This document shows, in pieces, positions 21,250-25,833 of a stretch of DNA of 64,000 nt. Positions within the stretch are counted from its first letter, which is position 1. Every line of letters begins with the position of its first letter. Origin of the DNA: an uncultured Solirubrobacterales bacterium. Lineage in GTDB: Bacteria; Actinomycetota; Thermoleophilia; Solirubrobacterales; Solirubrobacteraceae. A program made the translations under genes and the position numbers. Below the pieces are notes generated by a model. It did no database searches, was not told the DNA's origin, and saw only the letters and a list, made by a program, of their open reading frames with translations. The DNA is taken from assembly GCA_963794825.1 (NCBI GenBank), contig CAWCFB010000001.1:737528-801527 (forward strand), read 5' to 3'.

Positions 21250-23462
21250 GCACGGGGACCCTCGCCGAGCGTTGGGGCCCGGTCGCGCCGAGTCGCGCGG
21301 TGCGCGCGGCGCGGCCGGGGATGCGGCTGGCCACGTTCTCCGCCTTGGCGCTGTACGGAATGCTGCGCTGGGAGACGCTGCTGACGCCGGCCCCGGATGG
21401 GCGGATGCTGGCGCTGCTGGGGCTGGCGATCGTGGTTGCCGCGTTCGGTTGGGTGCCGCCCGAGCACCGCCGCTGGATCGCCGTCGCTGTGACGGTCGTC
21501 GCGGTGATCGCGATGTTCCCGATCGCGGGTGTCCCGTTGGCTTGGGTTCGCCACGTCCGGCTCGAGGTGACCGCGAACGCGATCGGGCAGGGGTTGAGCG
21601 CGCTTCCGAACGTGCTCGTCCCGTACCTGGGGATCAACCATTGGGTCCGTGTAGTGATCGTGCTCGGAGCAGCGGTGCTGCTGCTTGACGCGGCCCTGTT
21701 GATGGCGTTCACCGGCGCCCGGACGGGGGAGCTGCGACGGGCCGCGACGGCGTTGCCGCTGATCGCGCTCGCGGTCGTGCCCTCGACGATCGTCAAGCCG
21801 CAGTTCCCATACCTCCAGGGGCTTGTGCTGTTCGCGCTCCTGGCCGCCTTCATGTGGGCTGATCGAGCGCCGGCCCGCGAGGGGGCGAGCACGATTCTCG
21901 TGCTGGCAATCGCGGGGGTGGGCGGCGTCCTCATCGCGCCCCGGATCGACTCGCACCGGGCGTGGTTCGACTATCGCGCGATCGCGACCACGCTCGCGCC
22001 GTCGCACGTGGCGCGCTTTGACTGGTCGCAGACCTATGGGCCGCTGGTGTGGCCCCACCGTGGCCTTACCGTGTTCGCCGTCCAAGCGGACCGGCCCGAA
22101 TATTGGAAGACCGAGAACCTCGACGATTTCAACGGCCGAGCGTGGTCGGACGCAGGACCGGGACCGCTCGTGCCCTCGCGGTACGTCTCCCAGAACGCCG
22201 TCGCCCAGTGGACGCAGACGATCCAGGTGACGATCCGGGCGATGCGGACGAACAACGTGATCGCGGCGGGCCAGGCGCAGACGCCGGCCGACGTCCCGGG
22301 AGGCGCCACCCCGGGCACCAGCCTCGGCACCTGGGTGGCGGGATCGACGCTCGCGCCGGGATCCAGCTACCGCGTGCGCATCTACGATCCGAGTCCCAGC
22401 GCCGCCCAGATGGCCTCTGCCGGTACGAGCTACGCCCCGGAGCTCACGCCGTACCTGACGCTGTCGCTGCCCGTCACGTTCTCGAACCTGACCATCGATC
22501 AGCAGATCACTTTCCCGGCCTTCACGGGGGCCAACGCGATCACGGTGGCCCAGAACCAGGCGCTGATCCGCCGCTCGCCGTATGCGCGGGCCGACGCCCT
22601 CGCGCTCAGGCTCAAGCGGGGCGCCGCGACGCCATACGCATTCGCCCGGCGGGTGCTGGCCTATTTCCATACCGGCTACACGTACTCCATCGATCCGCGC
22701 TCCGGCCTGCGGTACCCATTGGAAACCTTCCTGTTCAAGACGCGGGTCGGCTACTGCCAGCAGTTCGCCGGCGCCATGGCGATGCTCCTGCGCATGGGCG
22801 GTGTGCCGGCCCGAGTCGCCGTCGGCTTTACGCCGGGCAAACGCGACTCGGCCACGCACGACTGGGTCGTCACCGACACCGAGGCGCACGCGTGGGTCGA
22901 GGCCTGGTTCCCGGGTTACGGCTGGGTCACCTTCGATCCGACGCCTCCGGCGAACGCCACCACCAGCAGCACCCCGGCGCTCCCGGGTGGCTCGAACAAC
23001 CGTTCGGGGGTCGGCTCAGCCGCCGCCGGGAAGAACCGCGCCAGGCCGTCGCAGGCCGCACACGGGCGGCACGGCGGTCCGCTCTCGGCGTGGGTCGTAA
23101 TCGCGCCCGTGGCGCTCGTGCTCGCGGCGCTGCTCGGGCTCCTGTGGCTGCGGCGGTTTGCCACCGGGTCGAGCGACGATCTGCTCGTCGAGCTCGAGCG
23201 GGCGCTGCGGCGCTCGGGACGCCCGGTCGCGGACGGTGTCACGCTCGCGGCGCTCGAGCGGCAGCTCTACGGCTCACCGGATGCCAGCGCGTACATCCGC
23301 ACCCTTCGCCTGCGCCGATACGGCGACGCACGGGCTGTGCCCACAGGCAGTCAACGCCGCGCACTTCGGGCCGCGCTGGCCGGCGGACGGGGGGCGTTCC
23401 GGCGGCTGCGCGCGTGGTGGGCGTTGCCACCGCGGCGGTACGATCGGAGTAGCAATGGATGA
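21246..23462 (+). CDS. Membrane transglutaminase-like (TgpA-type) protein
   Basis: Multi-TM N-terminus; intact triad GYCQQFA, HAWVE, FDPTP. Confidence 0.9.
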   Translation: MSTGTLAERWGPVAPSRAVRAARPGMRLATFSALALYGMLRWETLLTPAPDGRMLALLGLAIVVAAFGWVPPEHRRWIAVAVTVVAVIAMFPIAGVPLAWVRHVRLEVTANAIGQGLSALPNVLVPYLGINHWVRVVIVLGAAVLLLDAALLMAFTGARTGELRRAATALPLIALAVVPSTIVKPQFPYLQGLVLFALLAAFMWADRAPAREGASTILVLAIAGVGGVLIAPRIDSHRAWFDYRAIATTLAPSHVARFDWSQTYGPLVWPHRGLTVFAVQADRPEYWKTENLDDFNGRAWSDAGPGPLVPSRYVSQNAVAQWTQTIQVTIRAMRTNNVIAAGQAQTPADVPGGATPGTSLGTWVAGSTLAPGSSYRVRIYDPSPSAAQMASAGTSYAPELTPYLTLSLPVTFSNLTIDQQITFPAFTGANAITVAQNQALIRRSPYARADALALRLKRGAATPYAFARRVLAYFHTGYTYSIDPRSGLRYPLETFLFKTRVGYCQQFAGAMAMLLRMGGVPARVAVGFTPGKRDSATHDWVVTDTEAHAWVEAWFPGYGWVTFDPTPPANATTSSTPALPGGSNNRSGVGSAAAGKNRARPSQAAHGRHGGPLSAWVVIAPVALVLAALLGLLWLRRFATGSSDDLLVELERALRRSGRPVADGVTLAALERQLYGSPDASAYIRTLRLRRYGDARAVPTGSQRRALRAALAGGRGAFRRLRAWWALPPRRYDRSSNG

Positions 23463-23823
23463 CCTTTATGACCTGTACCGCAAGGGCACGGAGCTGCTCG
23501 AGGCCGGCCACCACCACCAGGCGGTGATCCCGCTCACGCGCGCGCGAGATCTGGCTCCGGACAAGTCGTCAATCCGTGAGGCCCTCGGCCGCGCCCTGTT
23601 CGGCGCGCAACGCTACGAGCAGGCCGCGCGCGAGTTCGAGGCCGTTTGCGAGCACGCCCCGACCAACGACTACGCCCAGTTCTGTCTGGGCCGCTCGTTG
23701 CAGCTGCTGGGCCGCCACGCGGAGGCCCGCGGGCCGCTGGCGCTGGCGGCGAACCTGCAGCCGACGCGGCGCGACTACCGCGTCTACCGCGACAGGGCCC
23801 GCGCCGCCGCGGCCAAGTCCTAG
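23455..23823 (+). CDS. Tetratricopeptide repeat protein
   Basis: About three TPR units (LYRKG...; EALGRALF...; QFCLGRSL...). Confidence 0.8.
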   Translation: MDDLYDLYRKGTELLEAGHHHQAVIPLTRARDLAPDKSSIREALGRALFGAQRYEQAAREFEAVCEHAPTNDYAQFCLGRSLQLLGRHAEARGPLALAANLQPTRRDYRVYRDRARAAAAKS

Positions 23824-23827
23824 TCCC

Positions 23828-23897
23828 GCCGGGGCCACATGTGGCCCCGGCCCGGCGGCGCATGCGCCGCCGGCGGGTGCCTGCATGCAGGCACCCG
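23828..23897. repeat. Array of three abutting perfect palindromes centred on CATG, 23-bp period
   Basis: GCCGGGGCCACATGTGGCCCCGGC (23828-23851), CCGGCGGCGCATGCGCCGCCGG (23852-23873), CGGGTGCCTGCATGCAGGCACCCG (23874-23897). Confidence 0.95.
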
Positions 23898-23977
23898 TTC
23901 CCATTACCCACCTGGCAAATCTGGTGCTAACCTGGGCCTACAACTTTCGCGCCGGGAAGTGCCCGGCGGCAGTACCG

Positions 23978-24003
23978 AAAGTGGGCGCCCGCCCGCTTTT
24001 TTT
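23978..24003 (+). promoter_or_regulatory. rimP leader terminator-like hairpin (attenuator)
   Basis: AAAGTGGGC-GCCC-GCCCGCTTT then a T run, just before rimP; extended -10 TGCTAACCT at 23925-23933. Confidence 0.75.
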
Positions 24004-24026
24004 ATTGACCAGATGCAAGGTGTGTC

Positions 24027-24440
24027 GTGACCGCAATCCAGACTGAAATCGAGGACCGACTGCAGGCCGTCGAGCCGGACGTCGAGGTGTTGCTCGTCGA
24101 GATCGTCAATCGCTCGACCTTGCGGCTGTTCATCGACCATCCGGATGGCGTCACCCTCGCTCTCTGTGAGCGGGTGTCCGGGCACCTGAACGACTACCGC
24201 GACAGCTACTCGCTCGAGGTGTCCTCACCAGGGGTGGATCGCCCGCTGACCAAGCCCCAGCACTACAGCCGGTTCCTCGGCCGCCGCGCTCGCGTGCGCT
24301 TGCGCGACGCCGACCACAAGCAACTCACCGGCGAGCTCGTCGGGGCCTCCGAGCAGGACGTGACGATCGCCGCGCAGGACGGCGTCGTGACGATCCGGTA
24401 CGAGCAGATCGTCCGCTCCAACCTCGTCCCAGGAGACTGA
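24027..24440 (+). CDS. rimP: Ribosome maturation factor
   Basis: LRLFIDHPDGVTL..C, YSLEVSSPGVDRPL. Confidence 0.95.
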   Translation: MTAIQTEIEDRLQAVEPDVEVLLVEIVNRSTLRLFIDHPDGVTLALCERVSGHLNDYRDSYSLEVSSPGVDRPLTKPQHYSRFLGRRARVRLRDADHKQLTGELVGASEQDVTIAAQDGVVTIRYEQIVRSNLVPGD

Positions 24441-24444
24441 GCAC

Positions 24445-25833
<1,389 letters not shown>

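Follow-up and report, generated by a model that had tools for sequence, protein, structure and literature searches.

What are three perfect palindromes, set end to end, doing in the short spacer between a gene for a TPR protein and the rimP-nusA-infB operon? The question is raised by an array in the window, which is the whole 64,000-nucleotide stretch of DNA analysed here. A first-pass annotation of the window had proposed that the array is an unrecognised palindrome-array element, a phased protein-binding site or a triple RNA hairpin. We followed up these proposals in the genome itself (G000), in its relatives and in a species-wide collection of genomes.

Layout and fold of the array upstream of rimP

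The annotation had described three loop-less, CATG-centred perfect palindromes of 24, 22 and 24 bp, and this description is confirmed. The units abut over positions 23828–23897, and their centres are 23 bp apart (Table 1). The array begins 4 nt past the stop codon of the TPR gene, as annotated, and 27 nt separate its end from the TG of TGCTAACCT (23925–23933), the extended −10 that had been placed about 30 bp away. The downstream genes encode RimP, NusA and IF-2, in this order. The sequence of unit 2 is found as an identical unit at three further loci in the same genome.

Table 1 Features of the palindrome array and its immediate flanks in the window.
Feature	Position	Strand	Description
TAG stop, upstream TPR gene	23821–23823	+	Ends ORF 23158–23823; 4 nt 5' of the array
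Unit 1	23828–23851	.	Perfect 24-bp palindrome (12+12), core ACATGT; predicted 10-bp stem, CAUG loop
Unit 2	23852–23873	.	Perfect 22-bp palindrome (11+11), core GCATGC
Unit 3	23874–23897	.	Perfect 24-bp palindrome (12+12), core GCATGC
TTCC flank	23898–23901	-	Reverse complement of the GGAA motif bordering many copies

As a single strand of RNA or DNA, the array is predicted to fold into stems of 10, 9 and 10 bp with the central four bases as the loop of each. The predicted fold is very stable in both cases (RNA, −64.3 kcal/mol, z = −6.3; DNA, −40.8 kcal/mol, z = −7.0). The 3' flank of the array is UUCCCAUU and contains no U-tract. A promoter/terminator scan reported no terminator-like site at the array, and the sole site of this kind that it reported lies in the rimP leader. 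A search of Rfam gave a single match to the array, BjrC68, whose 26 bits fall short of the gathering score (39). The RNA contigs assembled from one soil metatranscriptome do not extend over the array.

The TPR–rimP spacer was recovered from 29 relatives. CATG units are present in 3 of the 29 orthologous spacers, and the only relatives that have them are G068 (three units with other arms) and G076 (one unit). The extended −10 and a leader of ~90 nt are kept in all of the spacers, while the stretch from the TPR stop to the promoter is not. Judging from this alignment, the array is not part of the rimP promoter, because few spacers have units and the promoter and leader are kept in all of them; the annotated link between the two is not upheld. 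Nor does the TPR–rimP site need the array, because most relatives lack it. Significant structure was found in about 8 of 24 orthologous TPR–rimP spacers, and a conserved requirement for a hairpin at this place is not supported, most of the spacers having no significant structure. Strong hairpins unrelated to the array are present in three of these spacers (L132 of G021, L134 of G013 and L144 of G018), with stems of 15 to ~38 bp and z-scores of about −4 to −5, as if this gene end collects inverted-repeat insertions.

A family of hairpin arrays in Solirubrobacterales

The genome (3.73 Mb in three contigs, 89% complete) was scanned whole for perfect palindromes. Their numbers by arm length were 222 (8 bp), 67 (9 bp), 19 (10 bp), 11 (11 bp), 56 (12 bp) and 2 (13 bp). 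The window array is far beyond chance expectation, because the 56 palindromes with 12-bp arms compare with 0–3 in each of three Markov-simulated genomes of equal size and dinucleotide content. The long palindromes (the 12-bp-arm set, n = 56) are nearly all centred on CATG and occur in runs at 23- or 24-bp intervals. They belong to 22 loci distributed over all three contigs, comprising 19 triplets, 2 doublets and 1 single unit, and 62 of the 63 units are perfect. Individual unit sequences recur at up to 6 loci. Four loci have decayed: the third unit is imperfect, the core has a deletion or one unit stands alone.

The triple-core pattern is present in 22 of 61 sampled genomes of the genus, with 1–48 matches apiece, and a control pattern read backwards had no match in the same 61 genomes. 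A sample of the family (151 genomes, 51 genera) contained arrays in four genera, the highest count being 117 matches in a 2.6-Mb genome; in other families of the order, no arrays were found in 16 genomes. A species-wide scan of 185,579 species, with one genome each, gave at least 119 loci, and the 80 records listed are nearly all MAGs of Solirubrobacterales/Solirubrobacteraceae. The matches in Ekhidna, Chloroflexota and Acidimicrobiaceae have no palindromes inside them and are chance matches. A viral origin was rejected in the same way: ten pattern matches in IMG/VR are without palindrome arrays and are also due to chance. In a NusA+RimP tree, array-positive genomes are interspersed among negative ones. 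The tallies include three unpublished genomes (G041, G046 and G075), all array-negative, which make up 3 of the 29 rows of the leader alignment; no central claim depends on them. In another genome (G182), at least four three-unit blocks are nearly identical despite unrelated flanks, which implies either copying by an agent or homogenisation of copies.

The array in the window is thus, with near certainty, a copy of a dispersed family of REP-like hairpin arrays. Full-text searches of an incomplete literature collection found no description of these arrays or of close analogues, and the family, which occurs in soil Solirubrobacterales, is apparently undescribed. The scan of this genome and its Thermoleophilia relatives that the first-pass annotation had outlined thereby recovered a whole CATG-centred family, and its proposal of a palindrome-array element with shared symmetry and core but differing arms is supported.

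The annotation had itself named an artefact of assembly or fold-back sequencing as the result that would overturn its proposal. In favour of such an artefact, the short-read contigs of the likely source sample end at the array: the X1 contigs (23300–24500) break there and join the flank of another copy (C1:303422), which shows that arrays fragment and mis-join short-read assemblies. However, contigs from two other soil studies (X3 and X4, from strains ~95% identical) span the locus together with an array, arrays of like kind are present at over 100 independent loci in MAGs, some assembled from short reads and others not, and orthologous arrays lie at matching gene junctions in several species. 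These independent assemblies refute an artefactual origin, whose probability we regard as negligible, and the array stands as genuine sequence.

The arrays are found mainly at gene ends. At 18 of the 22 loci in this genome, a gene end is 0–12 nt away on at least one side, and about seven arrays lie between convergent genes; 37% of the arrays in other MAGs are within 12 nt of a gene end. The stop codons within 12 nt of an array (n = 25) are TAG (16), TAA (6) and TGA (3), and TAG/TAA therefore account for 22 of 25 stops beside arrays compared with 44% genome-wide (TGA, 56%). This depletion of TGA is pronounced in this genome (p = 1.6e-5) and weaker in the other MAGs (p = 0.02). No U-tract follows the arrays on either strand. 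The orientation of the arrays shows no consistent bias with respect to the replication strand, because the ratio of 13:5 in this genome is reversed at the loci of other MAGs (29:43). The neighbouring genes are ordinary and unrelated, and encode TetR, MarR, GuaB/GuaA, TrpF/TrpB, a proton pyrophosphatase, glutamine synthetase III, a cold-shock protein, a sigma factor/EF-G pair, two AdoHcy hydrolases, an MFS protein and others. No gene consistently adjoined the arrays among the neighbourhoods inspected.

Copies also occur within operons, namely between guaB and guaA and between trpF and trpB. At the latter junction (L164:3001–3072 = G000:C1:255078–255149), the reading frame of trpF runs on through a three-unit array, which encodes the C-terminal tail of the protein. 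The array forms the last ~24 codons of the gene, whose stop overlaps the start of trpB (ATGA). The in-frame array is present at this junction in four genomes, namely G000 and three other species of the genus, and 26 other relatives examined have no such array there but mostly plain variable tails. In two genomes, the trpF-trpB junction (L193 of G018 and L189 of G009) has paired perfect-stem hairpins with other loops (GGGG and TAAA, respectively), which may be decayed or sister hairpin modules.

Symmetric stems and one-sided loops

The inner 11 pairs are perfect in 423 (96%) of 441 units taken from other MAGs, and the 441 comprise 343 distinct sequences. Information content peaks at the centre (Y-R-CATG-Y-R, followed mostly by G/C), the outer six positions being nearly free, and the core of most units fits RCATGY. 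Arrays consist of 2–7 units with 0–2 nt between them. Their spacing is 22–26 bp, mostly 24 bp, and the exact 23-bp phasing noted in the first-pass annotation is a property of the window copy but not of the family. Many copies, though only part of them, are flanked by GGAA on one side, and GAAC or AACAGC borders the other. The block thus has polarity, because its two borders differ. The TTCC flank of the window array is GGAA reverse-complemented, which suggests that this copy is in the minus orientation of the element (GGAA-units-GAAC/AACAGC).

The stems of orthologous arrays differ extensively while remaining symmetric. In eleven comparisons of orthologous arrays, the inner stems have 71 mirrored double changes, transversions included, and no one-sided change. 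In one orthologous pair, whose flanks are 93% identical, 9 of 66 inner stem positions are changed, and the window array differs from its positional counterpart in G068 at 13 of 33 positions. In strains ~95% identical, on contigs of the two other soil studies, one arm of unit 3 departs from the window array by two indels (an insertion and a deletion) and a substitution, and each indel is mirrored in the opposite arm. Unit number varies between orthologous arrays, and whole units are swapped. Mismatches of the G/T type number only 3 in ~4,850 pairs of the 441 units, so that wobble pairing is not accepted in the way expected of a structure under selection on one RNA strand only.

The loops behave differently from the stems. 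At the edges of arrays, we found 13 extra units in which 8–9 of 9 stem pairs are kept and the loop is altered (CGTG, CACG, CAAG or CCTG), mostly by one-sided changes from CATG; about 0.1 such changed-loop hairpins would be expected at array edges by chance. The central four bases thus behave as an unpaired loop, because their changes are one-sided while the stem pairs are kept. Array-edge variants aside, the CATG loop is strongly conserved. The combination of mirrored stems and one-sided loops is the signature of a folded single strand.

Template switching during replication at quasipalindromes is an established mutational process that makes them perfect or more perfect (PMC7202029). Hotspots of this kind predict mirrored substitutions and indels in the stem with an uncorrected loop (PMC7202029), and the array data match this prediction. 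These hotspots are known as a source of mutation at single sites, whereas the arrays would extend the process to the upkeep of a repeat family. Such hairpin-templated correction probably keeps the stems symmetric, because they change rapidly and without visible intermediates, as it predicts. In principle, very strong selection by itself could also suffice for perfect stems.

Known repeats, candidate agents and competing explanations

The closest known kind of element is the REP/BIME/REPIN group of Proteobacteria, which is mobilised by RAYT transposases and, like the arrays, consists of short GC-rich palindromes at tens to hundreds of extragenic sites (PMC3116915, PMC3337134, PMC5581495). Both kinds cluster head to tail past the ends of genes, in the spacers of convergent genes and within operons; both also have a genome-specific consensus and persist in lineages with variable copy number. 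However, REP sequences are imperfect palindromes with a conserved stem and a GTAG head, whereas the arrays are perfect palindromes with hypervariable stems and no GTAG. The conserved part of the arrays is the centre, i.e., the CATG loop and its closing pairs, and their units abut. In addition, REP has a cognate RAYT, while the array-bearing genomes searched, which are MAGs, have none. We set the arrays apart from REP proper because they have neither a RAYT nor a conserved imperfect stem with a head motif.

Other known systems resemble the arrays in part. Hairpin-only ("I-shaped") 3' structures and intrinsic terminators of high-GC Actinobacteria are stable GC-rich stem-loops after stop codons. 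The arrays likewise place hairpins directly after stops and might act in both directions to end transcription or to stop 3' exonucleases, but they differ from these structures in their shared loop, in their dispersed near-identical multi-unit blocks, some of them in coding sequence, and in the absence of a U-tract. A canonical intrinsic terminator was rejected on the last ground; the hairpins are present, and the family is flanked by AACAGC and GGAA. The attC sites of integrons are imperfect hairpins with extrahelical bases that flank gene cassettes and need an integron integrase. They resemble the arrays only by analogy of working, in that conservation is limited to a folded single-strand hairpin and a short core, the sequence being otherwise widely variable, and the array has no imperfection, extrahelical bases, gene cassettes or integron integrase. 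The Correia elements of Neisseria, like other MITEs, are bounded by terminal inverted repeats and duplicate their target site (TA in the case of Correia). Like the arrays, they are small, non-coding, gene-adjacent dispersed repeats that form RNA hairpins, and their mobilising enzyme was long unknown. A MITE was rejected, because the near-identical copies in G182 and G000 showed neither terminal inverted repeats nor target-site duplications. The arrays are not CRISPR arrays either, since their units differ and abut and the sole constant is a centre of 8–10 nt.

No agent of spread was recognised among the gene families searched. Linkage to HUH enzymes, which the first-pass annotation had proposed, was tested and failed: Y1_Tnp/RAYT (PF01797) is absent from G000 and from the 21 other array-positive MAGs of the genus, and its matches are confined to 4 array-negative genus genomes, including the unpublished G046. 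There was no match in this genome to IS110, TnpB, reverse transcriptase (RVT), rve, DDE_Tnp_1 or DDE_3; one weak resolvase-like match and two putative tyrosine recombinases were found. An all-against-all comparison of the proteins of this genome revealed no multi-copy mobile gene or transposase. At a genome completeness of 89%, these absences are provisional. Two proteins without a Pfam match, each with three copies of at least 85% identity inside 12 kb, make up the largest paralogue cluster (L221, G000:C3:127001–139500); the genome otherwise has almost no repeated genes and none of seven searched transposase/reverse-transcriptase families. In G182 and G000, near-identical copies extend only ~3 nt beyond the units, with no target-site duplication (TA or other) and no terminal inverted repeat. 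Transposition is therefore not demonstrated, and concerted evolution of old copies could mimic it.

Candidate readers of the core were also considered. The sole DNA methylase found is an orphan N6_N4 methyltransferase, ~70–85% identical in 60 of 61 genus genomes irrespective of arrays, so that neither a link between methylase and arrays nor the gating by CATG methylation suggested in the annotation is supported. Its gene (L160:1513–2280 = G000:C3:859262–860026) sits between those for a glycosyltransferase and an AMP-binding enzyme. Genome-wide, GCATGC occurs at 759 sites, 0.6 of expectation, and is neither enriched nor strongly avoided. A DNA-uptake sequence was rejected: the arrays are not an uptake signal, because GCATGC is not over-represented. 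Two adjacent, near-identical pilin genes with a ComP domain, the receptor of DNA-uptake sequences, are present elsewhere in the genome (L226, G000:C1:377001–379000).

With moderate confidence, we explain the array as a copy of a dispersed, lineage-restricted Solirubrobacterales repeat that consists of hairpin modules, spreads as a block, has corrected stems and here caps the 3' end of the TPR transcript. We infer how it spreads, why it is symmetric and what it does in the cell. The repeat consists of 2–7 abutting hairpin modules (three in this genome), each with a GC-rich stem of 9–10 bp and a CATG loop. A module would fold in single-stranded DNA or in the transcript and would read alike on both strands. 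The element, which is probably mobile, would spread or be homogenised block-wise within the genome via an agent other than the known REP transposase. The symmetry of its stems would be kept mainly by hairpin-templated correction through template switching, together with selection that favours the hairpin. An alteration of one arm would either be undone or be transferred to the other, and the arms would drift nearly neutrally while the stems stay perfect. The CATG loop and its closing pairs would be under selection, probably through recognition by some factor. At the window locus, the array probably caps the TPR transcript. Three stable hairpins would form the end of this transcript, shielding its 3' terminus and hampering read-through into the rimP-nusA-infB promoter, similar to the role of REP/BIME in enterobacteria.

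Much of the same evidence bears on whether the arrays are instead purpose-built bidirectional terminators or insulators, arisen or kept locally, that stop transcription from either side in short spacers. Their position 0–12 nt past stops, often between convergent genes, fits this role, as do their strand symmetry and great stability and the unrelated strong hairpins in the TPR–rimP spacer of some relatives. In E. coli, the ribosome represses a terminator placed a few bp past a stop codon (PMC4824070). Such repression would favour several hairpins in series, and the triple layout may leave the middle hairpin free when terminating ribosomes cover the outer ones. However, a U-tract is lacking on both strands, and the copies inside the gua and trp gene pairs, including the in-frame copy in trpF, count against termination because termination there would be harmful. 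Most orthologous spacers are without significant structure, near-identical blocks lie at unrelated loci, the distribution is patchy within one genus, and a terminator has no need of an invariant CATG loop. We therefore consider purpose-built terminators unlikely, and the same low probability applies to the part assigned to the middle hairpin. The triple RNA hairpin terminator/insulator of the first-pass annotation agrees with the fold and with the location past stops, but a U-tract is missing and copies are also present between operon genes and in frame in trpF.

An enzyme specific for the CATG-tipped hairpin (a nuclease, a transposase or a fold-back polymerase) might instead build, copy and symmetrise the units, in line with the first option of the annotation, and the arrays would then be the footprint of a new mobile or DNA-editing system. 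This would account for an invariant loop on free stems, for whole units gained, lost or replaced between orthologous arrays, and for a range from 0 to more than 100 matches among related genomes. The absence of RAYT from the array-positive genus genomes, and of the IS families searched from this genome, also speaks for it. We rate it as quite improbable: there is no candidate gene, no multi-copy mobile gene in this genome and no gene that consistently adjoins the arrays, and template switching, a known host process, already explains the symmetry. Even less probable is a site in duplex or cruciform DNA for a dimeric binding protein, a topoisomerase or a restriction-modification/methylation system reading RCATGY. 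The BIMEs of E. coli bind gyrase and IHF, and this analogy and the RCATGY core of most units speak for such a site. Against it, the spacing varies from 22 to 26 bp, for which reason the phased protein-binding array proposed in the annotation is not supported either; a duplex binder needs no palindromic arms beyond its site; the one-sided loop mutations with paired stems point to a folded single strand; GCATGC shows no genome-wide enrichment or strong avoidance; and the only methylase is the orphan present regardless of arrays. An array of operators or methylation sites was rejected on the same grounds of spacing, free arms and a methylase common to array-negative genomes.

Returning to the preferred explanation, the dispersed hairpin repeat would be an actinobacterial counterpart to REP/BIME without the only enzyme known to move REP. 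The arrays provide a clean natural record of palindrome upkeep, in which hundreds of stems diverge and are never half-changed while loops mutate one-sidedly. The spread of palindromes without a transposase and the reach of template switching in shaping genomes become testable in one system. In a bolder and rather doubtful version, an as-yet-unrecognised system, either an enzyme for CATG hairpins or hairpin-driven template switching alone, makes, copies and symmetrises the arrays; if true, this would be a new class of bacterial repeat dynamics and not a variant of REP. On the practical side, short-read assemblies break at the arrays, which can also be taken wrongly for regulatory sites of a single locus, as at rimP.

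The leader of rimP-nusA-infB downstream of the array (23925–24005) is conserved in all 29 of the genus genomes examined. No Rfam family matched it. It comprises the extended −10 (TGCTAnnnT), a hairpin (GCCGGG..CCCGGY) and, just before rimP, a canonical terminator (GGGCG..CGCCC followed by 7–8 U). From its sequence the leader looks like an attenuator, because CUUUCG, which lies upstream, is able to base-pair with the CGAAAG at the terminator's foot, and it is perhaps a site of NusA autoregulation.
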